Source: a phage
DNA: 64,000 bases
Strand: one strand, 5' to 3'
Sequence record: PX068456.1
The notes under the pieces were generated by a model. It was not told the DNA's origin. It saw only the letters and a program-made list of their open reading frames with translations, and did not search any database. Shown in pieces: positions 10,034 through 45,606 of this stretch. The first letter of the stretch is position 1. Each line of letters opens with the position of its first letter. The position numbers and the translations under genes were made by a program.

Positions 10034-10112
10034 TGGAGGCGGGAGTAGGATTTGAACCTACGATCTCCAGCATATGAAACTGGCGAGGACGACCAGACTC
10101 CTCTATCCCGCG
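10034..10112 (-). tRNA. tRNA-Met (anticodon CAT)
   Basis: encoded CCA, T-arm gtagg/atttgaa/cctac, anticodon loop TTCATAT, D-loop with GG, U8-A9; pair 1-72 is C-C. Confidence 0.6.
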
Positions 10113-10127
10113 CAATCTGTAGTAATT

Positions 10128-10203
10128 TGGTTGATAGTAAGAGAATCGAACTCTTCTCGCAATGCCTTATGAAAGCACTCGAAACGCCAGCTTCACACTA
10201 TCA
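10128..10203 (-). tRNA. tRNA with anticodon CAT (second Met, initiator or Ile2-type)
   Basis: encoded CCA, perfect acceptor stem tgatagt/actatca, T-arm aagag/aatcgaa/ctctt, anticodon loop TTCATAA; D-arm atypical. Confidence 0.5.
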
Positions 10204-10291
10204 ATGGCTAACCCTTTATAACCCGTCTTGGCGTGGTATCCTTAACAGGATGGTAGATATCCGTTGCAAACCCTATGATATCTCTTAGATA

Positions 10292-10376
10292 TGGTGGCTA
10301 AGGTGAGACTCGAACTCACAATCCCTTGGGGCAATACGTTCTAAGCGTATCGTGTATACCATTCCACCACTTAGCC
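10292..10376 (-). tRNA. tRNA-Leu (anticodon TAG), type II
   Basis: encoded CCA, acceptor ggctaag/cttagcc, T-arm gtgag/actcgaa/ctcac, anticodon stem atacg/cgtat with loop CTTAGAA, 14-nt variable arm. Confidence 0.65.
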
Positions 10377-10453
10377 ATAATAAATACACCACTGTAAGAA
10401 GCCTCAATGTGCTATTGACAGTTAACCAAGTCTACTCCTTGGATGGTGATATT

Positions 10454-10528
10454 TGGTGCAGAGAGATGGTAACGATCCATCCTTTCTACCTTTTCAGGGT
10501 AGCACTAATCCGTCTCAGCTATCTCTGC
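10454..10528 (-). tRNA. tRNA-Phe (anticodon GAA), non-canonical T-loop
   Basis: encoded CCA, perfect acceptor gcagaga/tctctgc, T-stem gatgg/ccatc with loop ATCGTTA, anticodon stem ctacc/ggtag with loop CTGAAAA. Confidence 0.5.
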
Positions 10529-10533
10529 AAATT

Positions 10534-10609
10534 TGGTCAGTGCGGCAGGACTCGAACCTGCGACCCGAAGCATCCAAAGCTCCCACGCTACCAACTGCGC
10601 TACGCACTG
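10534..10609 (-). tRNA. tRNA-Pro (anticodon TGG)
   Basis: encoded CCA, acceptor cagtgcg/cgcactg, T-arm gcagg/actcgaa/cctgc, anticodon loop TTTGGAT. Confidence 0.65.
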
Positions 10610-10616
10610 TAAATAC

Positions 10617-10691
10617 TGGCTGGAGATCTAGGAATCGAACCTAGTCATCACGACTTCAAAGGCCGTTGCCTTCCCACTAGGCTAATCTCCA
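10617..10691 (-). tRNA. tRNA-Gln (anticodon TTG)
   Basis: fully parsed cloverleaf: acceptor TGGAGAT, D-stem GCCT/AGGC, anticodon stem-loop ACGGC-CTTTGAA-GTCGT, T-arm CTAGG-TTCGATT-CCTAG, discriminator G, encoded CCA. Confidence 0.7.
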
Positions 10692-10790
10692 ATAAAACTA
10701 AAAATCACTTAAAAAGAACCGCTAGAGTTTGAAGGAGAAAACCATGAGCGAAAAGAGAAATTTTCTCTAGCGATTCCATTTAAATAATCT

Positions 10791-10865
10791 TGGAGCGAGT
10801 AACAGGACTTGAACCTGCACCTGGAGGGTGGAAACCTCATATGCTACCATTAACACTATACCCGC
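10791..10865 (-). tRNA. tRNA-Gly (anticodon TCC)
   Basis: encoded CCA, acceptor with one GU pair, T-loop acttgaa, anticodon loop TTTCCAC, D-loop with GG. Confidence 0.6.
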
Positions 10866-10920
10866 TTAACAATATTACTCTAACATATTATTAGCCCCTT
10901 TGTCAAGAGGCTTTTGATAT

Positions 10921-11244
10921 TTATTTTAAAATAGTAGATGCACCACGTCTGTTTAGATATGCAATAGTAAAATCCAAATCACCTATTTCTTCAGGTTCCC
11001 ACTGACCTTCTAAACCATAACAAGAACAATGATATGCGTGTACTTCATAAAACAAAGATGTTTTCATATCATAAAAATAAACGTGAGATTCACCTTCATA
11101 ATATGCACAATCATAAGTGGCAGAAAGAATTACAATGTTATCCTTATCTAACTCTACTTCATAATATCTTTCAACATCTTCAATATCATCAAAACCATCG
11201 AAAACATTGATATTAAAATATTTCTCTAACTCTTTTTCTGTCAC
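10921..11244 (-). CDS. hypothetical protein embedded in the tRNA array
   Basis: 107-aa ORF between tRNA genes, same strand. Confidence 0.45.
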   Translation of the reverse strand: MTEKELEKYFNINVFDGFDDIEDVERYYEVELDKDNIVILSATYDCAYYEGESHVYFYDMKTSLFYEVHAYHCSCYGLEGQWEPEEIGDLDFTIAYLNRRGASTILK

Positions 11245-11267
11245 ATATACTCCTTTAGAGTTAAAAT

Positions 11268-11342
11268 TGGTGCTCCCACAAGGACTCGAACCCTGATAAG
11301 TTGCTTACAAGGCAACCGTAATAGCCGTTATACGATAGGAGC
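11268..11342 (-). tRNA. tRNA-Thr (anticodon TGT)
   Basis: encoded CCA, acceptor gctccca/taggagc, T-arm caagg/actcgaa/ccctg, perfect anticodon stem gttgc/gcaac with loop CTTGTAA. Confidence 0.65.
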
Positions 11343-11419
11343 AAAATATTTGCTTGGTAGGATTTGATACCTACAATTCTAGAAAATTCTAGAGGTTTCT
11401 ATTAACTCTACAAGCACTA

Positions 11420-11504
11420 TTTGGCGATGGATCAAGGATTTGAACCTTGCTAGAACTTTCGTTCACGGATTAACAGTCCGTCGCCCAACCACTAGGCCAA
11501 TCCA
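11420..11504 (-). tRNA. type II (Ser-like architecture) tRNA whose anticodon reads GTT
   Basis: encoded CCA, discriminator G, perfect acceptor gatggat/atccatc, 3-bp D-stem, perfect anticodon stem acgga/tccgt with loop CTGTTAA, 15-nt variable arm forming a GAAC/GTTC hairpin. Confidence 0.45.
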
Positions 11505-11511
11505 TCTTTAA

Positions 11512-11598
11512 TTTGGTGCAGGTAGTTGGACTCGAACCAACGAAGCCCCGAAGGGCAGGAGATTTACAGTCTCCAGCAATTGCCGCTATGCGATACCT
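11512..11598 (-). tRNA. tRNA-Tyr (anticodon GTA), type II
   Basis: encoded CCA, T-arm gttgg/actcgaa/ccaac, perfect anticodon stem ggaga/tctcc with loop CTGTAAA, 16-nt variable arm. Confidence 0.65.
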
Positions 11599-11603
11599 AC
11601 GTG

Positions 11604-11679
11604 TTTGGTACATCGTGAAGGATTCGAACCTTCGACCTTGGAGTTAAAAGCCCCTTGCTCTACCAACTAAGCTAACGAT
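11604..11679 (-). tRNA. tRNA-Lys (anticodon TTT)
   Basis: encoded CCA, perfect acceptor acatcgt/acgatgt, T-arm gaagg/attcgaa/ccttc, anticodon loop CTTTTAA, D-loop AGTTGGTA. Confidence 0.65.
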
Positions 11680-11815
11680 GTATAAATTATCTTTAAAATA
11701 GCCAGTGTTTGCGGCACTTGACTATGAAGTATTAGGGTATCGGTAAGATGGTGGAGGCCATCTGCCGAAAGTTTACTCTATTAAAGTAAGATTACAAGCT
11801 ACATTAAAGATAACT

Positions 11816-11901
11816 TGGCGGTAGATGTAGGACTTGAACCTACACGCCGTTTCCGACGACAGTTTAGCAAACTGTTGTGGCTACCATTTCACCAATCTAC
11901 C
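11816..11901 (-). tRNA. tRNA-Ser (anticodon GCT), type II
   Basis: encoded CCA, discriminator G, perfect acceptor ggtagat/atctacc, T-arm gtagg/acttgaa/cctac, anticodon stem acagt/actgt with loop TTGCTAA. Confidence 0.65.
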
Positions 11902-11909
11902 GTTCTTAA

Positions 11910-12110
11910 TTATTCAAAACAACCGGAATCTTTTTGTTCTGCTTTTACCATACGAATATTTTTACCATCTTCAGATTGTTGAAGATTAGAATACTCATAA
12001 ACAACTTTATTATCTACAATCTTAACTCCGGTAACAACCTGTCCAATAGTTTTATAATTCATAAAGCTCCTAGTTGAATTTGGAGGAAGATAATGGAGTC
12101 GAACCATCAC
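11910..12110 (-). CDS. hypothetical small protein embedded in the tRNA array
   Basis: 66-aa ORF; its 3' region may overlap the tRNA-Ser(TGA) call, so one of the two may be wrong. Confidence 0.3.
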   Translation of the reverse strand: MMVRLHYLPPNSTRSFMNYKTIGQVVTGVKIVDNKVVYEYSNLQQSEDGKNIRMVKAEQKDSGCFE

Positions 12111-12170
12111 CGTATCGCTACAATGGGCCAGGGTTCAAACCTGGTTGCGCACCGCTGCGCCCTACCTTCC
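12081..12170 (-). tRNA. tRNA-Ser (anticodon TGA), type II, about 90 nt
   Basis: encoded CCA, T-loop agtcgaa, anticodon stem ccagg/cctgg with loop TTTGAAC, about 19-nt variable arm; D-arm parse uncertain. Confidence 0.45.
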
Positions 12171-12233
12171 CGTTATCATACTTTAAATCTAACATAAAAC
12201 TATCTTGCTTGTCAAGTAGTTTTTAAAACTTTT

Positions 12234-12315
12234 TGGTCGGGGTGACAGGATTCGAACCTGCATACTCCAATTACTCGGTTAACGCCTGATTAGAAGTCAG
12301 GTGAGATACACCCCG
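12234..12315 (-). tRNA. tRNA-like, anticodon arm reads TCT (Arg) but no normal D-arm and 23 nt between anticodon and T arms
   Basis: encoded CCA, perfect acceptor cggggtg/caccccg, T-arm acagg/attcgaa/cctgc, stem-loop cctga/CTTCTAA/tcagg. Confidence 0.4.
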
Positions 12316-12384
12316 TTTTCACAGTAACTATAACAAAAAACTAAGTGAATGTCAAGATATTTTTACTAAAATTATTATTTAAAT

Positions 12385-12493
12385 TGAAGCCTAGTTATGG
12401 AATCGAACCATATTTCGTATTTAGTTAGACAAAGCGGTCTAACATATTTTTCAGGCTTTGATGGCCTCGGAATTACCAAATACCCTACTAGGC
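12385..12493 (-). tRNA. tRNA-like element or pseudogene: good 3' half, 5' acceptor complement only about 100 nt away
   Basis: T-arm tatgg/aatcgaa/ccata and acceptor strand gcctagt present, no encoded CCA; matching actaggc at 12487-12493. Confidence 0.25.
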
Positions 12494-12495
12494 GT

Positions 12496-12581
12496 TGGTG
12501 CAAGTGGAGGGATTCGAACCCTCAATCATTTAAGCGTTGCGTTTTAAGCACAATGTGTATCACCAATTCCACCACACTTGC
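12496..12581 (-). tRNA. tRNA-Leu (anticodon TAA), type II
   Basis: encoded CCA, perfect acceptor gcaagtg/cacttgc, T-arm gaggg/attcgaa/ccctc, anticodon loop CTTAAAA, 13-nt variable arm. Confidence 0.65.
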
Positions 12582-12695
12582 ATATAGGAGATGCATAGCA
12601 CCTCCTTTTAAATGGTGGTTCCCCAGGGTTACAATCCCTGCCCTCGACACTTATGAGGTGTGCGCTCTCGTCAGTGAGCTATGGAACCTTGAATA

Positions 12696-12962
12696 TTAAG
12701 CATACTGGGTCATTTCGCCAGCTTCGCGTTTCTCCAGAAGAACTGTAATCAAAGCAATAGCTGCTTCTTCTTCGTGAGGCAGCCCCATTTCATCCAGAAG
12801 AGCAAGGAAGTCAATTACCAAACTTTCTGTTTTAAGGCTCACGCTACCATTTTCGTTTTCAGTAAGAACTGATTCAGGTTCAAAAATAAAGATTGCTCCA
12901 CCTTTATTATCAATCAATACGTGCTTCTCAATCAGTTCTTTACCATAAGTACGTTCTGTCAT
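12696..12962 (-). CDS. hypothetical protein
   Basis: 88-aa ORF downstream of the tRNA array. Confidence 0.45.
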   Translation of the reverse strand: MTERTYGKELIEKHVLIDNKGGAIFIFEPESVLTENENGSVSLKTESLVIDFLALLDEMGLPHEEEAAIALITVLLEKREAGEMTQYA

Positions 12963-13142
12963 AGTTTTCTCCTTTTTGTTTAACTTGTGCTTATCTTAGC
13001 AAATAACTAGCTATGTTGTCAACTAGTTTTTACAATATTTTTTCTTGATCTGTAACCTAGTGTATAACCGCATACAAAAGATACAATAGCAATAAAAACA
13101 GATAAGCCAAAAATAATTTCTGTAGACATACTGTTTCCTTAA

Positions 13143-13364
13143 TTATGTGAAATCTAATTCCTCCTCTGGTGCTGTGTAATTTAGAAGAAGATCAGTTACA
13201 CTTTGATGTTGATAAACCCTTTCGGGACTGTCATCGAATGCCAAACTTGTACAAATCGAGCATAGATCCGACTCTTGAATATTACCATTCCTGTCTCTAC
13301 GGGAATGATTAGTCAAGTGTCTGTTACAGGCTCGGCAACGAAAATAAAAATTATGTTGTTTCAT
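13143..13364 (-). CDS. small zinc-finger-like hypothetical protein
   Basis: 73 aa with CxxC ... CxxC cysteine pairs (CRAC, CSIC). Confidence 0.45.
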   Translation of the reverse strand: MKQHNFYFRCRACNRHLTNHSRRDRNGNIQESDLCSICTSLAFDDSPERVYQHQSVTDLLLNYTAPEEELDFT

Positions 13365-13435
13365 AAATCCTTCGTGAAGCCCATCCAGGGCAGTTGTAGG
13401 CTCTCCTTACCTTAATCTTATCACGAAGTTTTTAT

Positions 13436-15169
13436 TTAGTCAACCTGGATGGTTCCCATAGTACGAAGAACCTCTACGTCAACACGGTTGCGGATATCAG
13501 TAAATGTTTCATCACGTCCTTCTACTTGTGGTGTAATAACCTTACCATTCTTGAAGATAACTTGTAACTCATTGTCTTCATCCTGGATATCTTTAAAAGA
13601 AAGATTATCTACAAGAGAAAGATTACCATTGGTATCCTTAACAACCTTAATAAAACCTTTTGCAGAGCGTTTACCAGGATCAGTTTTAGGCTCCTTACTT
13701 ACCAAAATTTCGTGTTCACCGATGATGCTACCTGTTGCTTTAACAGCAAAACCAAAAGTATCTCGTGTATTGAACTGATAAGTATAACTACCAACACCAA
13801 ATACAATATTGGAAGCTGCAAAACCTTTCTTCTTCAGTCGGCGTAAGATCTCGTGTTCTCGTTCAACAGTAATAGAATCACCATAAATCATACCGATATG
13901 CTGATCAAGAACCTTGTAGCCTTTTCGGTTGATAGTACCACCAAACACTTCCCAAAGGATTTGAATAGAACCTACTGCTTCACAATAAGGAATCTCATAA
14001 GTTTCATCAATGCAATCAGCAACACTGCAATCCTGAAGAACATTGTAATACTTATTAACATCAGCCAAATGAACTACTTCAGTGGCTGTCGCAATACCAT
14101 TATTTAAGAGGTCTTCATAGTTATCAAAAGATTCAACATTGTATCCTGCAACAACTTTAACCGGATCTCCTGAATCTGGACGAATAACAAGACGACCATT
14201 TCGTGACATAATGGAATCTTTCAATTCTACCAGAATGCGAGTCAATACAGCCCAATAGTCATAAGAGTCTGCTACATATGAACAAAAACCTTCTGGAACA
14301 ATTTCTTCGATATAACGACGAAGAAACTCTTTTTCTGCTACATAACGAAGCCCATCTACATCATCTTTAAGATGTGGGAAATGTTTCTTCAGATCTTCAA
14401 CAATAGCTCCAATGTTAGTCGTTGCTACTGAATGTTCTGTTGCCGGAATCGAACCTGCAACAAACTGATCATAATCAATACCATAATAATCATGCACAGT
14501 TTCAATAGCCAGAATATTATCTGTTCCTGTGAACGATGCCAAGTGAGCGATACCACTCTTATAACCATCTTCGATATTACTTAAACCACGTAGGCTAAAA
14601 TCATGACACTGGAAGTTAACGTGATCAATATTATCACACGTTGCCATCGCATATGCCATAGCGATACGCTTATACTGAAAAGCTGCTGTGGCATTAGTCA
14701 TTGTCTTCCAAGTTTCATCTGACAACAGTGTTTCCACATAGTTAGTTAACCAAAAGAATTTTTCTAAAGTATTATGCACAGTAAATACAGGAACACCAAT
14801 AGGACACAAAACACCCTCTGGCAGAGATCGAACTTCCAGCGGAAGATAACCTAAGTCGTGCAATTCTCCCCAACATTCAGCAGAAGGAGCAGAAGCACCT
14901 AATGCATTTTTAGACATACGATAAAATTTATTTACTGCTGCACTACGAGACATTTTAAAGAAGCTATCCCACATAGTTACAAGAGCATCAGTGACTGCTC
15001 GACGAATACCTAAAACAATCACACCACGTGCTTCACGATCTGCATAGTGTGCAAAGTTTTTATCATTACGAGGAGTTAAATTAGAGAAAATAAGTTTTGT
15101 ATTTTGGTTGTACATCTGCTTGTGACCAGGTTTGTACCAATCAGTAGCAAAAGGTGCAAAAATATTCAT
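13436..15169 (-). CDS. nadV: nicotinamide phosphoribosyltransferase family protein (NAMPT/NadV-like; alternatively a nicotinamide ADP-ribose transferase, Namat)
   Basis: 577 aa, NAMPT-family length; adjacent to a PRPP-synthetase-like gene on the same strand. Confidence 0.8.
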   Translation of the reverse strand: MNIFAPFATDWYKPGHKQMYNQNTKLIFSNLTPRNDKNFAHYADREARGVIVLGIRRAVTDALVTMWDSFFKMSRSAAVNKFYRMSKNALGASAPSAECWGELHDLGYLPLEVRSLPEGVLCPIGVPVFTVHNTLEKFFWLTNYVETLLSDETWKTMTNATAAFQYKRIAMAYAMATCDNIDHVNFQCHDFSLRGLSNIEDGYKSGIAHLASFTGTDNILAIETVHDYYGIDYDQFVAGSIPATEHSVATTNIGAIVEDLKKHFPHLKDDVDGLRYVAEKEFLRRYIEEIVPEGFCSYVADSYDYWAVLTRILVELKDSIMSRNGRLVIRPDSGDPVKVVAGYNVESFDNYEDLLNNGIATATEVVHLADVNKYYNVLQDCSVADCIDETYEIPYCEAVGSIQILWEVFGGTINRKGYKVLDQHIGMIYGDSITVEREHEILRRLKKKGFAASNIVFGVGSYTYQFNTRDTFGFAVKATGSIIGEHEILVSKEPKTDPGKRSAKGFIKVVKDTNGNLSLVDNLSFKDIQDEDNELQVIFKNGKVITPQVEGRDETFTDIRNRVDVEVLRTMGTIQVD

Positions 15170-15240
15170 AGTTATGTCTCCTTGTTTGTTAATGTGGGAG
15201 TATCTTACTAAGCATACTCCCTATTGTCAACACTTATTAT

Positions 15241-16134
15241 TTAAAAATTCCACACGTATGGAGATACAATTTGTTGTTGCAAATCTGACTGATTCTTAAC
15301 AAGAACACCAGAATCTTCTTGGATGTTATCTTCCCACACATTAAGAGAATGAATGCAGTCAAAGTGCTCACTTAACTCTTTAAGACCTTTAGAAAAGATA
15401 CCGTGCGTAACATATAGCTCAATCTTACCTGCGTTACGAGCACGTAGCACTTTAGCCAATTCGATAAAAGTTCTACCACCATCACAGATATCATCTACGA
15501 TCATCAGGTTACGCTTATTGAAATCCTGTACAGAAATGTCTGTACGAACAATAGCACCTGTTGCGGTATCTCTAACCTTCTCTGCACAGAACACATCTAA
15601 AGACATTTTCTTAGATAATTTAAATATTTTCTTAAGAGCACCACCATCAGGGCTAACAAGAGCAAAATTCTCCATACGTAACTTCCACTTTAAAGTTTCG
15701 TAAGCAATCTCTTCTTGAGGTATTACACAGAGTCTGTCAAACACTGCTGGAGTAACATCACTATGCGGATCAGCAACGATAACACGTGAGAAATTTAATG
15801 AATTAATTATAGAAGCAAATGCTTTAACTCCGAATGCTTCCCCAGGCTCACACACTCTGTCTTGTCGTGCATACGGCACATACAACATGAGTAAATCAAC
15901 ACAATATGGTTTATGATATAGCATATTGTCCAATGCATTCTTAGTCATAACCAAAGTCATCAAGTCTTTAGCAGATCTTACTTCTAAAGTGAGTAAGATT
16001 CTGTCTGTAGTATGATTGAAACCTGATAGATTCGTATCTAACTGAACATGTTGTTCTCCACCAGAGAATGTAAACACTTTAACGTCTACATCAGTAACAT
16101 AACAGTCAACACCATGCAGAATACTAACTTTCAT
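15241..16134 (-). CDS. prs: ribose-phosphate pyrophosphokinase family protein (Prs-like; alternatively an ADP-ribose pyrophosphokinase, Adps)
   Basis: 297 aa with PRPP-binding-loop-like motif MIVDDICDGGRTF. Confidence 0.8.
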   Translation of the reverse strand: MKVSILHGVDCYVTDVDVKVFTFSGGEQHVQLDTNLSGFNHTTDRILLTLEVRSAKDLMTLVMTKNALDNMLYHKPYCVDLLMLYVPYARQDRVCEPGEAFGVKAFASIINSLNFSRVIVADPHSDVTPAVFDRLCVIPQEEIAYETLKWKLRMENFALVSPDGGALKKIFKLSKKMSLDVFCAEKVRDTATGAIVRTDISVQDFNKRNLMIVDDICDGGRTFIELAKVLRARNAGKIELYVTHGIFSKGLKELSEHFDCIHSLNVWEDNIQEDSGVLVKNQSDLQQQIVSPYVWNF

Positions 16135-16543
16135 TCTTTATCTCCTTAGTTGAGTTAGGACTTTATGTTCTCTACTCTACATACAGATAGATCTAAAGTC
16201 AATAGATATTTATTATTTAATTAATAATAAAATTAATAAATAATCTATTGTTAGTATAGAGCATGTATGTTAGTATTATAGACATAACATAGTGTTATAT
16301 GTAGACTACTCAGTTGTCTGTTAGATCATGTATCACAAGATTAGATAACACCCCCTCGCTGCGCTCGGCGTTTTTCGGGGGTTAGGGTAGCATACTTTTT
16401 TGCGTTTGTCAACACCTTTTTAGATTATTTTTAAGTACAACCTGAACCTCCTAAAAACGATTGTAACGAGTTTTACTGTGAGGTAAGGTGATTGCATATC
16501 TTAGGTGCTATTAGCTCGTTACAGAGCCATACAGGAGGGAATA
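16135..16543. promoter_or_regulatory. AT-rich divergent intergenic control region between the minus and plus gene blocks
   Basis: about 400 bp non-coding with an AT palindrome (ttatttaattaataataaaattaataaataa), short direct repeats and a GC island acaccccctcgctgcgctcggcgtttttcggggg. Confidence 0.4.
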
Positions 16544-16912
16544 ATGAGGGTCACACGTTACGTTAGAAGTGAAACAATAGATGGAGGCATAATGTATGCT
16601 TTCTACGATGATAAAACTTTTTGTTCTGCATTCTATGAAGAAGACTTGTCTACGGAATGGCAACAAATCATCTTCTTACTTGACATTTTGAAAAGAAGAG
16701 ATAACTTTGAAGGTATTGAGTGGACAGTGGGAAGCAAAGTTATCGTTGCAGGTTTAAGCAAACATGAGTTGCTTGACTTAGACTGTAAACTTTGTAATTA
16801 TCAATTCTCAAAACGTTTACCATTAGAAAGACAGTTAGGAGTTGAGATTCATGTTGACTTGGGCGATGGAGTATCCTATACTCTCAACAATCATAGTGCT
16901 GACGTTAATTAG
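16544..16912 (+). CDS. hypothetical protein
   Basis: start set to the ATG after acaggaggg (MRVTRYV...). Confidence 0.5.
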   Translation: MRVTRYVRSETIDGGIMYAFYDDKTFCSAFYEEDLSTEWQQIIFLLDILKRRDNFEGIEWTVGSKVIVAGLSKHELLDLDCKLCNYQFSKRLPLERQLGVEIHVDLGDGVSYTLNNHSADVN

Positions 16913-16978
16913 TGGGATCACAAAGTGCGTCACAAGCATTTGCGATTGTTTAACACATTTTAAACAAAGGAAAAATAA

Positions 16979-17176
16979 ATGAATCAAACTATGCAAACAA
17001 TCTATAGAGTAATCCTTGGTGAGTTCCATGTTGTTAAGTCAACATTGAATTATGAAGAAGCTAAAGAGAATTTCTTGCTATGGGTTGAAGCATTCTCTGA
17101 AGTTGAAAAGGTAAGTTACAATTGTGTAACTTTAACTGCCGATCACGTACCTGTATTGGAGTTTATTAAGAAATGA
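16979..17176 (+). CDS. hypothetical protein
   Basis: 65-aa ORF with aaggaaaaataaATG. Confidence 0.5.
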   Translation: MNQTMQTIYRVILGEFHVVKSTLNYEEAKENFLLWVEAFSEVEKVSYNCVTLTADHVPVLEFIKK

Positions 17177-17412
17177 AAAAAGAAATTTTAACTGATGTAA
17201 CATATTCTTGTATTAGCAAAGGCGGTTTATATCGTGTAGTTGGCTTTCCTAAACCAGCGGGTGTATCTAAAGTATTTGATCCTGTTGTGATCTACGAAGA
17301 TGTAAGGACTGGTCAACAGTATTGGCGATTCCAGCAAGATTTCTTACACCGCATGGAGGTTGTTGATGGCGAAAACACCGAAGAAGCGATCCGTAACAAA
17401 GCGCGCATCTAA
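17173..17412 (+). CDS. hypothetical protein
   Basis: 79-aa ORF overlapping the upstream stop (ATGA). Confidence 0.5.
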   Translation: MKKEILTDVTYSCISKGGLYRVVGFPKPAGVSKVFDPVVIYEDVRTGQQYWRFQQDFLHRMEVVDGENTEEAIRNKARI

Positions 17413-17701
17413 AGATGGGGCGGCAAAAGCCGCTCCTAAGAAACAAAAATTTGACACAGAGGCTTTTGTCTTTGATACTCCAATAGAAAAGATAGAAGAA
17501 GCTCTTGCTAAATTTGAAGCACGTGATGCAGATCCTATGGCAGATCCTTTCACAGAAGATGAATTGTACTGGTTTGGCTGGTGGGTTTTGAATCTACCAG
17601 AAGCTAAAAAACGAGGAATGAAGTCAGTTCCTATTTGTGCAAAAGAATCGGCTGTGTTAGGTTTATACGAGAAACCTAAAAGAAGGAGCAAAAAGAAATG
17701 A
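17366..17701 (+). CDS. hypothetical basic protein
   Basis: start set to the ATG after ggagg (MAKTPKKRS...); lysine-rich termini. Confidence 0.45.
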   Translation: MAKTPKKRSVTKRASKDGAAKAAPKKQKFDTEAFVFDTPIEKIEEALAKFEARDADPMADPFTEDELYWFGWWVLNLPEAKKRGMKSVPICAKESAVLGLYEKPKRRSKKK

Positions 17702-17976
17702 GAAAAACTTATCTGAAGTGTTTGTCTGTTGTGCAAAATGAATGGTATTCAGGTTTGCTGACAGCAGGTAAGAAATATGAAGTGCTCAATAAACCAGGGG
17801 CAAGATTTTCATTAATTAAGAACGACAAAGGCACTGAAATGCTTATTTCAGTTGCAGATTCTATGTATGGTACTTTTGAGTTGGTCTATGAATATGTACC
17901 AATTATTCTTGAATACAGCGGTACAAACAAACCTTACACAGCTTTAGATGTGATCAACAACAAAAGGAATAAGTAA
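17698..17976 (+). CDS. hypothetical protein
   Basis: 92-aa ORF, ATGA overlap with upstream gene. Confidence 0.5.
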   Translation: MRKTYLKCLSVVQNEWYSGLLTAGKKYEVLNKPGARFSLIKNDKGTEMLISVADSMYGTFELVYEYVPIILEYSGTNKPYTALDVINNKRNK

Positions 17977-18167
17977 TGTTCCTTATTTATTCAGGTAAAG
18001 CCAAATACATGCAAGGTGTGAAGCGTGTAGAAGTAGTAGATACTGTAACTATAGGAAAATCCTTTATTCTTTATTTGTTTTATATCAATGGAGAAAGATT
18101 TGCTGTTTCTAAGAAGTTGGTAGATAATGGTAAAACTTGGAAAGAAGAGAAACAGGAAGGGGGTTGA
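17976..18167 (+). CDS. hypothetical protein
   Basis: 63-aa ORF, overlapping start and stop. Confidence 0.45.
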   Translation: MFLIYSGKAKYMQGVKRVEVVDTVTIGKSFILYLFYINGERFAVSKKLVDNGKTWKEEKQEGG

Positions 18168-18169
18168 TA

Positions 18170-18511
18170 GTGGCTAAAATTCTTTGGTTAGACGATTTAA
18201 GAGATCCTAAAGATTATGGTTATGAGGATGCCATTTGGTTAAAATCTTTTGAGGATTGGTCATCTTTTGTTTCAGATGAAGATAATTTCAATAATATCTC
18301 AGAGATACACTTCGATAATGATCTTGGAGAAGATCAGGAAGGATATCATGCATTCTTAGACGTAGAATGTATGTTGTATGCGGGTGAATGGGATGCTCTT
18401 AAAACTATCTATGTCCATACATCAAACCCTTCTGCTGCTGGTAAATATATGTTAGCTAAGGAAAATTTTATTTCATCCTATGGTGTTGAAATTAAACGTG
18501 TTAACTATTAA
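18170..18511 (+). CDS. hypothetical acidic protein
   Basis: probable GTG start after aggaaggggg. Confidence 0.45.
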   Translation: MAKILWLDDLRDPKDYGYEDAIWLKSFEDWSSFVSDEDNFNNISEIHFDNDLGEDQEGYHAFLDVECMLYAGEWDALKTIYVHTSNPSAAGKYMLAKENFISSYGVEIKRVNY

Positions 18512-18520
18512 GGAGGTGTT

Positions 18521-18667
18521 ATGCTTTATGTTATTTGGGTAGATGAAGGGGATGGGTTTTATATATACAAACACACTAACCATTGGCCCGATGTAGAAAA
18601 AGCACTTGCAACTTTTGAAGATTGCTTTTACGATATACATACAGACGAAGAGTATGAAGAAAATTGA
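18521..18667 (+). CDS. small hypothetical protein (48 aa, below the ORF-track cutoff)
   Basis: aggaggtgttATG, fills the gap between neighbours. Confidence 0.4.
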   Translation: MLYVIWVDEGDGFYIYKHTNHWPDVEKALATFEDCFYDIHTDEEYEEN

Positions 18668-19026
18668 TGTGCACTACTAATCAACATGATATTTGTTACC
18701 AACCTCTTACTTGGATTGGTGAGGATCACTATGCTCAACGTGTTATAGTCTGCGCTGCGAATAAGTATATTCTCAACAATGGCGAAGAGTTAATTATTCC
18801 TTGTGTTAGGCATGCAAATCCTGTACTATCTGCACAACTTAATGTTTTAAAAGATGCAGGATTGATTGGTAAACTGTTTTGCTTACCTGATAATCAAGGG
18901 TTTATTGATCAGTATTATAACTGGTGGAGTCGCAAAGATGCTTATATCATTGCAGATAACGCCAAACAAATTAACTACGAAAGAAATGGTCACGACAGTG
19001 AACTATTCAGCGAGGGATTATACTAA
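18664..19026 (+). CDS. hypothetical protein
   Basis: 120-aa ORF, ATGA overlaps. Confidence 0.5.
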   Translation: MMCTTNQHDICYQPLTWIGEDHYAQRVIVCAANKYILNNGEELIIPCVRHANPVLSAQLNVLKDAGLIGKLFCLPDNQGFIDQYYNWWSRKDAYIIADNAKQINYERNGHDSELFSEGLY

Positions 19027-19577
19027 TGTTTATTACAAGTGATTTGCATTTTATGCACAAACGTATCCGAGAGTTTGCTCCTGAATATCGCCCGTGGGAA
19101 GATATGGAGCATATGACAGAAGCACTGATCGAAGCATGGAATAAATGTGCCACAACACCAGGAGTAAAGATGTACCATCTTGGGGACTTCTGTTTCGGGA
19201 CTGAAGAAGATACCCGTAAGATTGCTTCCCGTCTCCAAGGGGATATTACTTACTGTGTTGGGAACCATGATTACAGTAAACACCGAGAAGTGCTTGCAGA
19301 ATATGGCGAGGTGGTGTATTATGATGAAGTGAAATATCAGAAACTGTTCTTCGTCTTAAGCCATTACCCTATGGCTTCCTGGAATAAACAAGGGCATGGA
19401 TCAATCATGCTACACGGGCACTCTCACGGATCATTCCCTGATCATTTGTATGGGAGAATGTTGGATGTTGGTTGGGACGCACACGGAAAAATCTTGCATT
19501 TTGACGAAATCATCTCTATTATGGATAAGCGTGATATTGTTGTTGTAGACCATCATAAGATAATCAAAGGAGATTAA
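19026..19577 (+). CDS. metallophosphoesterase (calcineurin-like phosphatase)
   Basis: metal-binding motifs GDFCFG and VGNHDY, His-rich C-terminus. Confidence 0.7.
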   Translation: MFITSDLHFMHKRIREFAPEYRPWEDMEHMTEALIEAWNKCATTPGVKMYHLGDFCFGTEEDTRKIASRLQGDITYCVGNHDYSKHREVLAEYGEVVYYDEVKYQKLFFVLSHYPMASWNKQGHGSIMLHGHSHGSFPDHLYGRMLDVGWDAHGKILHFDEIISIMDKRDIVVVDHHKIIKGD

Positions 19578-19578
19578 G

Positions 19579-20511
19579 GTGGCTAAGTTCAATTGTGATG
19601 ACCTGATTGCAAAAGGTTTAGTGCATAAAAAAGAAGTTAAATCTGGAGAGTATGCTGGTCTTGCTGTACTTAAATACAAAAACAATGTATTCTGGGACAA
19701 CTTGTGGGACGTAGACAAACGCCTTCTAGATTGTCGTGGGTTGGTTGTTGACTCAGAAGACAATGTTGTTATTTGGCCTTTTACTAAAATCTTTAATCGT
19801 TTTGAGAATGGTACAGATCTTCCAGCAGACCATCTTGTAGATGCTGTCCGTAAAGTAAACGGTTTTATGGCATCTGTAGGTGTGTACAAAGGGCAACTTA
19901 TTGTATCAACAACAGGGAGCCTAGAGTCAGATTTTGCAATTCTTGCCAAGAACCATATTGTTTCCGAGTGTGATGACATAGAATATTTCATTAAGTGGAC
20001 AGAAAGTGCAAAAGCAACTTTCCTTTTTGAAATCTGTGATCCTTCTGATCCACATATTGTTGAAGAAGAACCAGGCGCATACTTAATTGGAGCAAGGATT
20101 CAAAATCCTGATGGGACAAGTTTCATGCTACCCGAAGGTGTGCTTGATGGGATTGCATCTATTACAAAATTTAAACGTCCTGAAGTTTATCCGATGATTA
20201 AATTTTCAGATGTTGTTGAAATGTCTAAACATTGTAAGCACGAAGGGTTTGTTATTCGTGAAACAAACTATCCGTTTAACTTGCTGTTAAAGATTAAGTC
20301 ACCATATTATCTTGCTAAGAAATTCCTTATGCGTGGTGGCAATAAGAAGTGGGATATGATTTGGGACAACCCAAAAAATGCTAAACAAATTGTTGACGAA
20401 GAATATTATACTTTGCTAGAATGGCTTCGAAACAACTTTACTAAGACTCAATGGGCTGCTTTAGATCCACAAGAGCGACGTAAAGAAATAGAAAACTTCT
20501 TTGGAGGCTAA
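19579..20511 (+). CDS. Rnl-family ATP-dependent polynucleotide ligase, probable RNA ligase
   Basis: GTG start after aaggag; nucleotidyltransferase motif I KVNGF and motif V EGFVIRE. Confidence 0.55.
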   Translation: MAKFNCDDLIAKGLVHKKEVKSGEYAGLAVLKYKNNVFWDNLWDVDKRLLDCRGLVVDSEDNVVIWPFTKIFNRFENGTDLPADHLVDAVRKVNGFMASVGVYKGQLIVSTTGSLESDFAILAKNHIVSECDDIEYFIKWTESAKATFLFEICDPSDPHIVEEEPGAYLIGARIQNPDGTSFMLPEGVLDGIASITKFKRPEVYPMIKFSDVVEMSKHCKHEGFVIRETNYPFNLLLKIKSPYYLAKKFLMRGGNKKWDMIWDNPKNAKQIVDEEYYTLLEWLRNNFTKTQWAALDPQERRKEIENFFGG

Positions 20512-20916
20512 ATGAAACAACTTATCATTTTACGTGGTGTTTCAGGTGCAGGTAAATCTACAGTAGCAGAAATTATTTCTGAAGGTTATTGGCCTATCTG
20601 TGAGGCAGATCAATATCATTACACAGAAAGTGGTGTTTACGATTGGAAGCCAGAGAATGTAGGTAAAGCACACGCATGGTGTCAGAGTATTGTTCGTGAT
20701 GCTATGGCATCTAATATTAAAAAGATTATTGTCTCTAACACTTCAACCACAGAGAAAGAACTTAAACCTTATTTAACTCTTGCTGAAGAGTTTGGTTATC
20801 AAGTTATCTCCTTAGTTGTTGAAAATAGGCACGGTAACGACTCAATTCATGAGGTTCCACAACATATTCGTGATCAGCAAGAGAAACGTCTTCGCAGTTC
20901 ACTTAAGCTACAATAA
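20512..20916 (+). CDS. P-loop polynucleotide kinase-like protein
   Basis: N-terminus MKQLIILRGVSGAGKST resembles the T4 Pnk kinase domain. Confidence 0.6.
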   Translation: MKQLIILRGVSGAGKSTVAEIISEGYWPICEADQYHYTESGVYDWKPENVGKAHAWCQSIVRDAMASNIKKIIVSNTSTTEKELKPYLTLAEEFGYQVISLVVENRHGNDSIHEVPQHIRDQQEKRLRSSLKLQ

Positions 20917-22971: not shown

Positions 22972-23694
22972 ATGATCGAGAATTTTTTCAAACAAGTAAA
23001 AGTGGACAATAGCTTCTTTATCAAGGCTGCCGATCAAATTGTTGCTTGGAATGCTAAGGCACGTGGTGGCGTAACCCCAGAATTTACTCAAGAGATGTTT
23101 GAAGCTCAACTTTCTTTTGTACGAGAAGAACTAAAAGAGTTCCAAGCAGCAGCACAGGAAAATGATCACGTTGAATTACTTGATGCAGCAGCAGATATTT
23201 TTGTGGTAGCATCCTATCTGGCGTTTATGTTTTTTGGTAAAGAAGGTGTTGATAAAGCTCTGGAAATGCCGACAGGAGATGTTCTGGCAGAAAACATCTA
23301 CGATGTTATCATTGAATTTGATAAAATGGTAGAAAATGACTTGCAATTTGCCCTAATGTCTCTTACACTTACACGTATGGCACGAGATACTTTGGTGCGT
23401 TCTGTTTATAACGAGAAGAAGGTTATGCGTGAAGTGTTGAATAGCAATGAGTCCAAGTATCCTACCAAGAAGCAACTCCTGGCTATTTGGGAAACTAAGG
23501 ATATTGTTGAAGCTCTTGAAAAAGAGTGTGATGCTATCGAGATGCGAAGCAAAGATCGTGCAGAAGGTTCTTATACTGGAATACATGCTGTATATAACGA
23601 AGTTCAAAAGGTATACGTATTCTTTGATGACAAAGGTAAAATTATGAAGCCATCTACCTTTGTTAAACCTAATATCGCAGCAATCATTGCTTAA
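22972..23694 (+). CDS. MazG-like nucleotide pyrophosphohydrolase
   Basis: EELKEF...E...D..E.LD..AD pattern typical of all-alpha NTP pyrophosphatases. Confidence 0.55.
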   Translation: MIENFFKQVKVDNSFFIKAADQIVAWNAKARGGVTPEFTQEMFEAQLSFVREELKEFQAAAQENDHVELLDAAADIFVVASYLAFMFFGKEGVDKALEMPTGDVLAENIYDVIIEFDKMVENDLQFALMSLTLTRMARDTLVRSVYNEKKVMREVLNSNESKYPTKKQLLAIWETKDIVEALEKECDAIEMRSKDRAEGSYTGIHAVYNEVQKVYVFFDDKGKIMKPSTFVKPNIAAIIA

Positions 23695-28505: not shown

Positions 28506-29069
28506 ATGGCTAAACTTTATTTCCGATATAGTCCGATGAACAGTGGTAAAAGCACACATCTTCTACAAACAGCTTGGAACTATAAAGAAAGAAATATGAA
28601 AGTTCTTCTTTTAACTTCAGCTTTAGATACCAGATCTGGTGGTGCTATTGCTTCTAGGATAGGTATTAAAGAGGAAGCAAAACCAGTTAAAACAAAAGAA
28701 GATATGCTGGAAATTTATACACAACTTAAAGAGAATCCAGTAGATGCAGTATTTGTGGACGAATCACAATTCCTAACTAAAGATATGGTTGACATTCTTG
28801 GAGATGTGGTAGATAATTACGATATTCCTGTATTCTGTTATGGACTTAAAACAGATTTTGCTACAGAATTGTTTGAAGGTTCTGAACGGTTATTAGCCAT
28901 AGCAGATTCCATTACAGAATTGAAAAGCATTTGTAAATGTGGAAGAAAAGCTATTTTCAATGCTAGACTTATCGACTCTAAAGAACAGATTGTTATTGGA
29001 GGAGAAGACATTTACGAAACAATGTGTAGAAAATGTTATAACAGGAGAAATAATGCGTCTAGTATGTGA
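28506..29069 (+). CDS. tdk: thymidine kinase
   Basis: P-loop SPMNSGKSTHLL and C-terminal zinc-ribbon cysteines, 187 aa. Confidence 0.85.
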   Translation: MAKLYFRYSPMNSGKSTHLLQTAWNYKERNMKVLLLTSALDTRSGGAIASRIGIKEEAKPVKTKEDMLEIYTQLKENPVDAVFVDESQFLTKDMVDILGDVVDNYDIPVFCYGLKTDFATELFEGSERLLAIADSITELKSICKCGRKAIFNARLIDSKEQIVIGGEDIYETMCRKCYNRRNNASSM

Positions 29070-29643
29070 TTGGGATTTAGTAATAGCTCCAGCGGATATA
29101 GAATGGTTAAATTGGTTAAATGCGGTAAGTAGATCTAATATCAAATTTGATAAGACACATAAAACTGTGCACTATGATATTACGAAATATTTCCCTGATT
29201 TTAAAAAGCAATTTGGTGTAGATCCTTACTCTTTTTGGGATAACCAACATCTATATGATACTATGGGAGTAGTACCTAATAGTACAGATGTTGTTCATCG
29301 TATAATTGCAAATGGAGCTAATATATCTATAGCGAGCCACACTAAGGGTGGACACCTTAGTTCTAAATATAGACACGTAACACGATCTTTAGATAAAGTG
29401 GATTTTAGTAGAACATCTGGTAATGGCTTTTTCGCAACAAAAGAAAAATACTTATTACCTTGCGATGTAACTATTGACGATAGGGCTGAAAATCTTGTCC
29501 TGTTTCCAGATGAAACGTTGAAAATATATTTCAACACTATTTACGAAGATCCATATTTGGAAGAGTTAAAGAAACTTCCTAATGTAATTATCACTGGTTT
29601 AGATAATCAGTGGGAAGAAATTGAAAGTATTTTACTACCTTAA
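29053..29643 (+). CDS. putative 5'(3')-deoxyribonucleotidase (HAD/NT5C-like)
   Basis: start at the ATG after aggag (MRLVCDWDLVIA) giving a DxDxV motif; overlaps the tdk 3' end. Confidence 0.5.
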   Translation: MRLVCDWDLVIAPADIEWLNWLNAVSRSNIKFDKTHKTVHYDITKYFPDFKKQFGVDPYSFWDNQHLYDTMGVVPNSTDVVHRIIANGANISIASHTKGGHLSSKYRHVTRSLDKVDFSRTSGNGFFATKEKYLLPCDVTIDDRAENLVLFPDETLKIYFNTIYEDPYLEELKKLPNVIITGLDNQWEEIESILLP

Positions 29644-36183: not shown

Positions 36184-37169
36184 AATACTTAGTAACAGGT
36201 GGTTTAGGCTTTATTGGAAGTGCGGTAGTTCGTTTCCTGGCTAAAAATACTAAGAATGATATTTACGTTATAGATAAATGGGGTTACGCTTCAGATCCTA
36301 GAAATTTATCAGAAACACCCAATGTAAAGTTTTGTCGTGTTGACTTGACAAATGCGCAGTTAACTGCTAAGATTGTGGCAGATGTTAATCCAGATTATAT
36401 AATGCATCTTGCAGCAGAAAGTCACGTAGATAATTCAATAGCATCACCGAGTGTTTTTATAAATTCAAATATTGTTGGGACATTTAATCTCCTAGAAGCT
36501 GTTCGTTTAATGGGAGATAAATCAAATCTTAAAATGTTCCATCATATTTCAACAGATGAAGTATATGGTGATATGGAAGAAGGGGATTATCCGTTTACAG
36601 AACAGAATCCTTATAAGCCAAGTAGTCCATATGCTGCATCTAAGGCAGCAAGCGATCATTTGGTAAGAGCGTGGCATCGTACTTATGGTATTCCGACAGT
36701 TATAACAAATTGTTCAAATAATTTTGGAGCATATCATCATCCAGAAAAACTAATACCTAAAACGATAACAAATATCTTGATGCATAAACCAATCCCTGTT
36801 TATGGTAATGGTCTTCAAGTAAGAGACTGGTTATACGTTGACGATCACGCAGAAGCATTACACCTAGTAGTAACTAAAGGCAAATCTGGAGAAACATATA
36901 ATATTGGGAGCAGAAACCCTAGAACTAATATTGATGTAATCTATATGATTTGTGATTATATGGATGCGGTGTATCCATCTGAAACAGATGCTTGTAGCCT
37001 CATTGAGATGGTTACAGATAGACCTGGGCATGATTTAAGATACGAAGTGAATCCTTATAAGATTGAAAAGGAATTAGGGTGGAAAGCTAAAGGCACATTT
37101 GAAGAAAAACTTTATTCAACCATTGATTGGTATGTAGATAACAAAGAGTGGTGGGAAAATAAAGTTTAA
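36180..37169 (+). CDS. rmlB: dTDP-glucose 4,6-dehydratase
   Basis: N-terminal [10 protein letters not shown] Rossmann motif and YAASKAASD active-site motif. Confidence 0.85.
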
Positions 37170-44481: not shown

Positions 44482-44685
44482 ATGGCAGTTCAATCTTTTG
44501 AGGAGACTGTTAAAAAACAATTCCTATCGAAGCGAGCGATGGTTGAATTTTTGCATTTTCTCGAAGTAGATAGGGTACTTATTGAGACTACACCAGATGG
44601 TAACTGGCAAGTCTCGTATATTGCCACCAGGCATATCGTAGACAGTACGAAAGAAGAAAGTTCGGAAGTTACGGTTGCTAGTTAA
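44482..44685 (+). CDS. hypothetical protein
   Basis: 67-aa ORF after aaggaggaaacATG. Confidence 0.45.
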   Translation: MAVQSFEETVKKQFLSKRAMVEFLHFLEVDRVLIETTPDGNWQVSYIATRHIVDSTKEESSEVTVAS

Positions 44686-44696
44686 AGGAGTTAAAT

Positions 44697-45269
44697 ATGC
44701 GTTTAGCTTTTAACGGGAAGATAAGCACAGCAAACATATTGTCAGCAGTAGGATTATTAGGTAAAAAATTTACACCTTTCAGTTTACCAGTTTGTGTAGA
44801 TTTTGATCATGTGTTTGATATTAATAATCCTTCACGTTGTATTGCCAGAAGTAATATTGATAACCCAAGTGAAAATCTGTTTTACATTACTAAACCATCC
44901 CAGGCAATTTTGAATCAATGGGAAGCAGGTCTGATTAAACCAGGTAAATATTTTGCATTACTACCTTGTAAATCATTGGCTATAGAGGACAGTCTAAACT
45001 ATGCAAACAATCTTGTTGTTACAGCATTCATTGTCTCAGAAAAAGAAGAAACTGCGGCACTTGCAAATACTGTTAAATCTTTGTATGATGCTTTGGGTGT
45101 TACTTACACTACATTCGTTTGTGAAGATATTCCACATTGCGTTGAATTTGTAGTAAATGGTGTAACTGTATGTCGTGTAGAAACAACGCAAGATGAGGAC
45201 GTTTTTATTACTGTAGCCGATGTAATATCTGAACCTGTGTTTAGTTACGCAGTTTCATTAACACATTAA
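44697..45269 (+). CDS. hypothetical protein
   Basis: 190-aa ORF. Confidence 0.5.
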   Translation: MRLAFNGKISTANILSAVGLLGKKFTPFSLPVCVDFDHVFDINNPSRCIARSNIDNPSENLFYITKPSQAILNQWEAGLIKPGKYFALLPCKSLAIEDSLNYANNLVVTAFIVSEKEETAALANTVKSLYDALGVTYTTFVCEDIPHCVEFVVNGVTVCRVETTQDEDVFITVADVISEPVFSYAVSLTH

Positions 45270-45279
45270 GGAGAAGGGG

Positions 45280-45606
45280 ATGAAAATAACGACAGAACAG
45301 GCTTTAATAGACAAAGGAAGGGAAATCTTAGAAAGTCATTTGGAGGATATTCAAAGGACTCCAGGGTATCTCGGCTGGCGTATACAAGAAGCCGTCGATT
45401 TTCTACCCCGTAAAAATAAAGAGATTGAGGTAAGATCTCTATTCCTCCTTGTTAAAGTAGATGGTGACGCTATATATAAAGATGTAGCGTCTCACATTGA
45501 ACAAATAGAAGAAAAAGCCTACAAAGAATTTGCAGATCTTGTTGTAGAACATAATATAGAAGGTAAAGTTAATATCTTTATACTTATGGATTTTGAGGAG
45601 AGTTGA
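45280..45606 (+). CDS. hypothetical protein
   Basis: 108-aa ORF after aaggagaagggg. Confidence 0.5.
   Translation: MKITTEQALIDKGREILESHLEDIQRTPGYLGWRIQEAVDFLPRKNKEIEVRSLFLLVKVDGDAIYKDVASHIEQIEEKAYKEFADLVVEHNIEGKVNIFILMDFEES

Follow-up and report, generated by a model that had tools for sequence, protein, structure and literature searches.

NAD+ reconstitution pathway 1 (NARP1) is a two-gene phage module that combines a Prs-family ADP-ribose pyrophosphokinase (Adps) with a Nampt-family nicotinamide ADP-ribose transferase (Namat). The operon was first noticed as a recurring feature of four BASEL phages (Osterman et al. 2024, bioRxiv 10.1101/2024.02.11.579819). In that work, the Adps of Bacillus phage SPbetaL1 was found to pyrophosphorylate ADP-ribose (ADPR) and to give no product from ribose-5-phosphate, and SPbetaL1 Namat to form NAD+ from ADPR pyrophosphate (ADPR-PP) and nicotinamide, with ADPR-PP preferred over phosphoribosyl pyrophosphate (PRPP). 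Deletion of genes 79-80 made Bas63 sensitive to SIR2-HerA, and rescue by the wild-type operon was independent of host pncC and nadR, with ADPR-PP accumulating in infected cells (10.1101/2024.02.11.579819). Altogether, SPbetaL1, DyoEdafos and Paenibacillus are the only sources whose Adps and Namat enzymology has been shown, together with Bas63 in vivo, and the counter-defense effect is known for Bas63, FADO and SPbetaL1 knock-ins. Defenses neutralized by NARP1 include SIR2-HerA/Nezha, DSR1/2, type I Thoeris and SEFIR, as well as Kongming in co-expression assays, and NARP1 phages overproduce NAD+ only when a defense system is present. The study of Osterman et al. was published in Nature in 2024. 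Here we examine a 64,000-nucleotide stretch of phage DNA, sequence record PX068456.1 (from this point on, the window), in which two adjacent genes, adps and namat, very probably constitute such a two-gene NARP1 module.

A sequence-only reading of the window had described co-oriented genes for a 577-aa NAMPT-like and a 297-aa Prs-like protein, and both open reading frames (ORFs) are present as described, on the minus strand (Table 1). In the ORF listing the Prs-like gene lies upstream, 71 nt from its partner, and each gene carries the Shine-Dalgarno sequence AAGGAG 7-8 nt before its ATG. The ORFs, the domain matches, the ribose-phosphate-binding loop motif described below and the Shine-Dalgarno sites together exclude a chance origin. 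Identity of the region to Escherichia phage EC.P2 is 99.6%, to vB_EcoM_PHB05 99.4% and to phi92 97.5%, which makes the window, at 64 kb of a roughly 148-kb genome, part of a phi92-like Justusliebigvirus (Stephanstirmvirinae). Among the 61 phage records that match, the operon locus is present in 56 with an identity no lower than 97% over 80% or more of its length. Near-identical copies occur in the BASEL phages JohannJBalmer, PaulScherrer and EmilieFrey, and we infer that these three and Bas63 are the four in which the operon was first noticed. Ratios of nonsynonymous to synonymous substitution (dN/dS) against phi92 and outra are 0.04-0.07 for adps and 0.07-0.13 for namat, so that both genes are maintained by strong purifying selection. 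The lineage has in fact already been catalogued as NARP1, since the Prs-like proteins of phi92, PHB05 and JohannJBalmer stand in Table S1 of Osterman et al. with the entry 'Namat within 10 genes: Yes' and their NadV-like proteins in Table S2 as 'Adps-associated'. The system is thus a known one, listed in its discovery paper, and nothing is added here to its published biology.

Most of the 61 related GenBank records nevertheless name the two genes 'ribose-phosphate pyrophosphokinase' and 'nicotinamide/nicotinate phosphoribosyltransferase', or 'hypothetical protein'. Under this historical annotation, the pair would perform classical salvage, in which a true PRPP synthetase and a true Nampt/NadV yield nicotinamide mononucleotide (NMN) and the host enzymes NadR or PncC/NadD convert it to NAD+. 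We regard this as improbable, although both proteins do pass broad models consistent with it, the first TIGR01251 (118 bits, cutoff 113) and the second PRK09198 (463 bits, cutoff 405). The 297-aa protein also matches Pribosyltran, Pribosyl_synth and PHROG 619 (306 bits), but on every Prs equivalog model it falls short of the cutoff at least 2.5-fold; on the equivalog and subfamily models it reaches, for instance, 98 bits on PRK01259 (cutoff 297) and 98 on PRK00934 (cutoff 296), with the others lower. E. coli Prs scores 533 and 423 bits on models that the window protein fails or barely passes, the latter figure being for TIGR01251, where SPbetaL1 Adps scores 106 and Bas63 Adps 138. The NCBIfam score pattern of the window protein is therefore that of the Bas63 and SPbetaL1 Adps and unlike that of Prs.

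For a hidden Markov model (HMM), eight NARP1 Adps from outside the genus of the window phage were used, namely those of Bas63 and SPbetaL1 and six from Table S1 of Osterman et al. Against this model the window protein scores 256.5 bits and E. coli Prs 119.9. In a neighbor-joining tree rooted on a single Prs (E. coli, b1207), the window protein falls inside a group of Adps from phages of Gram-negative hosts that contains Bas63. The PRPP-binding-loop-like motif of the sequence-only reading is real and corresponds to MIVDDICDGGRT (aa 211-222), with DDICDGGRT as its core. Other intact Adps motifs are YARQDR (88-93), DPHSDV (122-127) and SPDGG (161-165). The elements DPHSDV, K-V-R-D-x-x-TG and DDICDGGRT are common to Adps, where Prs instead has DLHAEQ and DDMIDTGGT. 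Residue K186 is the equivalent of the active-site K162 of SPbetaL1 Adps, whose replacement by Ala abolishes NAD+ synthesis. By profile, tree and motif, then, the 297-aa protein is assigned to the Adps clade and not to cellular Prs. The lack of activity of SPbetaL1 Adps on ribose-5-phosphate likewise argues against a PRPP synthetase at this position.

For the 577-aa protein, family searches give Pfam NAPRTase PF04095 at 5e-38 and PHROG 448 'nicotinamide phosphoribosyl transferase' at 629 bits. Its match to PRK09198 was dropped as a discriminator, because Namat and KVP40 Nampt pass that model equally; it hence does not discriminate in favor of salvage. The top PDB matches are 9w5x/9w5w, the SPbetaL1 Namat, at 400 bits, with mammalian NAMPT at 176. 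When the window protein was aligned with the Namats of SPbetaL1 and Bas63 and with KVP40 Nampt, which is PRPP-specific, all catalytic and NMN-binding residues proved invariant. Numbered from SPbetaL1 to the window, these are D13 to D10, Y15 to Y12, F189 to F191, R192 to R194, D215 to D217, A242 to A243, H245 to H246, R306 to R330, D308 to D332, G360 to G430, D361 to D431, G390 to G460, R399 to R469 and D400 to D470. The protein is probably a head-to-tail dimer. Relative to the crystallized SPbetaL1 Namat it has two insertions, both with counterparts in Bas63, where the second is even longer; the aligned lengths suggest that such a long form of Namat is common among myoviruses of Gram-negative hosts.

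What separates Namat from Nampt is a selectivity clamp, found only in Namat, whose helix follows the signature GS-X-Phi1-X-Phi2-X-Phi3-TRD, with the aromatic X residues stacking on adenine (Lan et al. 2026, PMC12774641). The selectivity-clamp helix (SCH) of the window protein is a full match to this signature, with Thr, Gln and Asn at Phi1, Phi2 and Phi3, which are the commonest residues at these three positions (PMC12774641). The equivalent segments read GSFTYQYNTRD in SPbetaL1 and GSYTYQYMTRD in Bas63. They read GGGLLQQLDRD in KVP40 Nampt and GGGLLQKLTRD in mammalian NAMPT, both of them PRPP-specific, so that G, L, Q or K occupy the aromatic positions. An adenine clamp would be without purpose for an enzyme of PRPP, and this again speaks against salvage. 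Taken with the Adps-clade membership of its partner, the SCH makes outdated the caution of the sequence-only reading that sequence alone could not tell salvage from reconstitution. The profile comparison it had proposed, of both proteins against Prs/NadV and against Adps/Namat, comes out on the Adps side for the one (the HMM scores above) and at an SCH of Namat type for the other. Comparison with the window Namat also gives 340 bits for a 495-aa 'nicotinamide phosphoribosyltransferase' in PDB entries 9ke8/9keo, which was left out of the references. The SCH equivalent of this protein, GAQTYQRNTRD, is intermediate, having the TYQ-NTRD frame but lacking aromatics at positions 3 and 7; to judge from this motif, Namat may grade into bacterial or phage NadV with no sharp boundary in sequence.

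A further consideration is whether NAD+ could be made at this locus by way of NMN with an enzyme of the phage itself. In an arrangement of the NARP2 type, a PRPP-dependent Nampt would work with a phage NMN adenylyltransferase (Nmnat) encoded elsewhere, and the Prs-like protein would only supply PRPP. KVP40-like phages do use Nampt with a bifunctional Nmnat/Nudix, and the window covers less than half of the genome. Nevertheless, when 27 window ORFs were scanned with Pfam (seven other candidates or operon neighbors besides the 20 unannotated ORFs with a length of 120 aa or more), no CTP_transf_like/Nmnat, NUDIX, NadR, Macro or RyR domain was returned, and nothing in the whole-genome annotation of PHB05, the closest RefSeq relative, is named as any of these. 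The statement of the sequence-only reading that the window has no recognizable NMN adenylyltransferase thus stands for the 27 ORFs scanned and extends to the PHB05 annotation. The one PHB05 product that might have qualified, the 'nucleotidyltransferase' gp151, was rejected as an Nmnat, being a PolyA_pol head domain. As the SCH motif is also unlike that of KVP40 Nampt, a NARP2-type pathway is scarcely credible here.

Nor did the other partners known from extended NARP1 operons appear. Among the 20 unannotated window ORFs of the Pfam scan, none had a match related to NAD, and the neighboring ORFs of 73 aa, 88 aa and 135 aa gave no Macro or RyR match. With no Nmnat, Macro or RyR partner, the module classifies as core NARP1, and not as NARP2, NARP1-AP or the RyDEP-extended form. 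When all ORFs of at least 30 aa in window positions 9000-20000 (about 4 kb to either side) were compared by blastp with the neighborhoods in Bas63 and SPbetaL1, adps and namat were the only genes shared by the three, which fits a self-contained two-gene cassette. The Zn-ribbon-like 73-aa ORF and the 88-aa ORF downstream, having no match in either neighborhood, are not conserved partners, and the 36-aa peptide likewise has no counterpart beside NARP1 in Bas63 or SPbetaL1. Repeats or mobile-element ends were sought around the cassette, and only short two-copy matches, none convincing, were seen.

The setting of the cassette also invites a reading free of any link to defense, in which it raises PRPP for phage DNA synthesis, as the window is rich in genes of nucleotide metabolism (NrdAB, thymidylate synthase, thymidine kinase, MazG-like and NT5C-like). 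General nucleotide supply leaves no role for the linked Nampt-family gene, a partner that accompanies 97% of Adps-clade genes. It is also at odds with the absence of Prs activity in the Adps clade where assayed and with the restriction of NAD+ overproduction by NARP1 phages to cells with a defense system, and we consider it very improbable. Each of these rival explanations conflicts with at least one tested feature.

We therefore return to NARP1 as the very probable identity of the pair, and here the preference of the sequence-only reading for two-enzyme reconstitution over Prs plus NadV salvage is borne out by the Adps grouping, the Namat clamp motif, the missing Nmnat and the published tables alike. 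In the proposed mechanism, defense NADases (SIR2-HerA/Nezha, DSR1/2, type I Thoeris, SEFIR) split NAD+ into ADPR and nicotinamide, Adps would convert ADPR and ATP to ADPR-PP, and Namat would join ADPR-PP with nicotinamide to give NAD+ and pyrophosphate. Such a two-enzyme route would require no NMN intermediate, no Nmnat and no host salvage enzyme. Gene order, clade, catalytic and selectivity residues, selection and the lack of an Nmnat are features of the locus itself; the chemistry and the anti-defense phenotype would be those of its homologs, and the validated ones (Bas63, SPbetaL1, FADO) are only 27-45% identical to the window proteins.

Several points weigh against this assignment. For Adps, identity is 36% to Bas63_0079 and only 27% to SPbetaL1, and in pairwise phmmer comparisons the window protein scores 65 bits with SPbetaL1 Adps, the only biochemically assayed Adps used, against 58 with E. 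coli Prs and 136 with Bas63. Since SPbetaL1 is thus barely closer than Prs, the biochemical argument runs through the Adps profile and the in vivo data for Bas63. Identity of Namat to validated proteins is likewise only moderate, at 39% to Bas63_0080 (BLASTP) and, by alignment method, 39-45% to SPbetaL1. The second half of the clamp, the selectivity-clamp loop (SCL), is not conserved in detail. In the window it is six residues longer than in SPbetaL1 and two longer than in Bas63; at the third residue, where an Arg, or a Lys or Tyr with a stacking residue next to it, would contact the adenine, K37 aligns with R40 of SPbetaL1 and with a Lys of Bas63, but N38 stands where Bas63 has an adenine-stacking Trp, and F39 follows. 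The SCL half of the clamp is accordingly no more firmly placed than plausible. Namat enzymes retain some formation of NMN from PRPP in vitro, a property that sits well with salvage, and from this residual activity a minor salvage contribution by the window Namat is conceivable. The promoters discussed below are consensus matches only, and hence a weaker inference. Finally, no assay of an enzyme or knockout of a phi92-like phage was found in the searchable literature.

The operon is the first unit of a leftward gene block and lies beside a 370-nt divergent region in which the GC skew flips sign. Downstream of it, without a change of strand, the block continues with three small ORFs, 16 clustered tRNA genes and, after these, the late genes. 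Candidate sigma-70-like promoters precede both adps and namat, and the spacer that holds the second differs at 1 of its 71 nt from phi92 and likewise from outra. The pattern TTGAC[AT]-N16-18-TAAGAT is matched exactly at four places in the window, where chance predicts 0.17, and three of the four form a cluster, with one directly ahead of each of namat, the 73-aa ORF and the 88-aa ORF. This suggests transcription driven by host sigma-70 from separate promoters, probably early; early host-driven transcription, if true, would suit a counter-defense role. A riboswitch or structured RNA upstream of the operon was also considered and rejected, as an Rfam search of positions 12600-17000 gave only GA-cis at 21 bits (gathering threshold 34.7).

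Table 1. Positions of the adps-namat module, its signals and other features of the 64,000-nt window
Feature	Coordinates	Strand	Basis or remark
adps, 297-aa ADP-ribose pyrophosphokinase (Prs family, Adps clade)	15241..16134	-	ORF listing, family matches; first module gene
namat, 577-aa nicotinamide ADP-ribose transferase (Nampt family, long form)	13436..15169	-	ORF listing, family matches; second module gene
Adps K186 codon, equivalent of SPbetaL1 active-site K162	15577..15579	-	alignment
Adps aa 214-222 DDICDGGRT, ribose-phosphate-binding loop in Adps form	15469..15495	-	alignment
Namat aa 32-37 TPRNDK, start of SCL	15058..15075	-	alignment
Namat aa 460-470 GSYTYQFNTRD, SCH (adenine of ADPR-PP/NAD+)	13760..13792	-	motif of PMC12774641, alignment
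Namat insertion 1, about aa 253-282, relative to SPbetaL1 Namat	14324..14413	-	phmmer gap to 9w5x, alignment
Namat insertion 2, about aa 343-399, relative to SPbetaL1 Namat	13973..14143	-	alignment
Sigma-70-like promoter candidate TTGACT-17-TAGAGT, about 40 nt upstream of adps start	16174..16202	-	consensus match; in 370-nt divergent region
adps Shine-Dalgarno AAGGAG	16142-16147	-	
Sigma-70-like promoter candidate TTGACA-17-TAAGAT in adps-namat spacer	15202..15230	-	consensus match
namat Shine-Dalgarno AAGGAG	15178-15183	-	
TTGAC[AT]-N16-18-TAAGAT sites	12993-13022, 13415-13443, 15202-15230	-	
TTGAC[AT]-N16-18-TAAGAT site	36345-36373	+	
73-aa ORF	13143-13364	-	two CxxC pairs, weak RecR Zn-finger match, PHROG 37033
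36-aa hydrophobic peptide	13019-13129	-	matches phi92 gp109
Acidic 88-aa ORF	12696-12962	-	PHROG 15056
16 tRNA genes (Ile, 3x Met, 2x Leu, Phe, Pro, Gln, Gly, Thr, Asn, Tyr, Lys, 2x Ser)	9812-12688	-	directly downstream of NARP1 block
cREC_REC 'cyclic-phosphate processing receiver' protein	18137-18511	+	52 bits
Calcineurin-like phosphoesterase	19026-19577	+	below Pfam cutoff
RNA ligase	19579-20511	+	PHB05 annotation
AAA_33 kinase-like protein	20512-20916	+	
MazG/PRA-PH-like pyrophosphohydrolase	22972-23694	+	PF01503, 31 bits
NT5C-like 5'-nucleotidase	28939-29643	+	23 bits, just below cutoff
CobB-like sirtuin, 270 aa	50835-51647	+	Pfam SIR2 81 bits, PHROG 2162, E. coli CobB 1s5p 70 bits

Beyond the operon, a phage with an NAD+-rebuilding module is seen also to encode an NAD+-consuming enzyme, a CobB-like sirtuin that keeps the catalytic His of its HG motif. 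A sirtuin consumes NAD+ and releases nicotinamide together with an ADP-ribose derivative. No Pfam domain is seen in the products of the two genes upstream of it (189 aa and 203 aa). Outside of the window, about 65 kb from the operon, PHB05 encodes gp179, a 'phosphatase' of 238 aa containing a Macro domain (PF01661, 31 bits; PHROG 335), at 44601-45317 of the PHB05 stretch examined, beside a HAD hydrolase. A neighbor of gp179 is called 'putative orotate phosphoribosyltransferase' in one record. The presence of gp179 was rejected as evidence for NARP1-AP, in which such a phosphatase (Adpp) takes part, because its Macro family is common, occurring in about 2,970 phage records that include Felixounavirus and T-even phages, and the latter have it without NARP1. 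A wider scheme, in which phi92-type NARP1 is the hub of a phage NAD+/ADPR economy and the sirtuin and Macro protein feed ADPR to Adps, is speculative and on balance unlikely. Under it, the genes could form a split NARP1-AP acting in trans against RES-type defenses, or could recycle the phage's own NAD+ spending. Under the same scheme, the choice of substrate by Namat might be adjusted by the insertions of its long form and by its non-canonical SCL (K37-N38-F39).

Some further observations concern the locus and the window at large. The phi92 record (FR775895) annotates a 151-nt 'hypothetical tRNA' within the Namat coding sequence (1592-1742 of the phi92 stretch examined). At its counterpart in the window, about 14427-14577, ARAGORN found no tRNA, and the phi92 feature is probably an annotation artifact. 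Four 'Campylobacter phage' records of about 146 kb, A150, A145, C3 and A110a (MG065639, MG065645, MG065656 and MG065689), are 97.7-97.8% identical to the locus; the host label looks doubtful, with contamination or mislabeling a possible cause. An RNA-repair-like cluster of genes occupies 18137-20916 on the plus strand, and could serve as a counter to anticodon nucleases.

The practical value of these results lies in corrected annotation, as the two genes should read Adps and Namat wherever they now carry the older names. With only two enzymes, NARP1 counters a whole class of NAD+-depleting defenses, and for this reason its presence helps in predicting which hosts a phage can infect and how robust it would be in therapy. 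Phages of the genus Justusliebigvirus are frequently isolated as candidates for therapy.

Among known systems, the cellular enzymes Prs and Nampt (human NAMPT, bacterial NadV) share with the window pair their superfamily folds, the Mg-ATP and ribose-phosphate loop scaffolds and the chemistry of phosphoribosyl transfer. Their substrates are ribose-5-phosphate and PRPP, as opposed to ADPR and ADPR-PP for Adps and Namat, and the separation is visible at the profile level for Adps and in the clamp motif for Namat. NARP2 of Vibrio phage KVP40, which pairs Nampt/NadV with the bifunctional Nmnat NatV, has the Nampt-family fold and the catalytic residues in common with the window; its Nampt, however, uses PRPP rather than ADPR-PP, has a shorter SCL equivalent and needs Nmnat, and there is no Adps. 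NARP1-AP of Vibrio phage Gary (Adps, the Macro-domain phosphatase Adpp, and Namat) and the RyDEP-extended NARP1 of mycobacteriophage DyoEdafos both have the same core enzymes as the window. These forms carry the Macro or RyR gene in the operon, whereas the window has neither within or beside it.

In SPbetaL1 (genes 190-191; Adps WIT26982, Namat WIT26983), the Prs-family gene is directly upstream of the Nampt-family gene, as in the window. Its Namat, of known structure (9W5W, 9W5X; PMC12774641), has an identical catalytic core and the same SCH arrangement, with aromatics at positions 3, 5 and 7 followed by TRD, and the catalytic Lys of Adps is also shared. The differences are that SPbetaL1 Namat is a short form of 491 aa against 577 in the window, that adenine is stacked by Arg40 where the window Namat has Lys37, and that the Adps loop reads DDLSSFGGT against DDICDGGRT, in proteins of low identity. 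Another of the closest known systems is that of Bas63 (Escherichia phage JohannRWettstein, genes 79-80). Bas63 belongs to Felixounavirus rather than Justusliebigvirus, its flanking genes are unrelated, its Namat and Adps are no more than 39% and 36% identical to those of the window, and the SCL residue after the Lys is Trp where the window has Asn. Nevertheless, the two loci have the same adps-namat order, a short spacer and the same host species. Both Namats are of the long form with two insertions, an SCL that starts PR-x-DK and a clamp of the form GSYTYQ(F/Y)xTRD, and both Adps share DPHS(D/N)V, K-V-R-(D/N) and DDICDGGRT.

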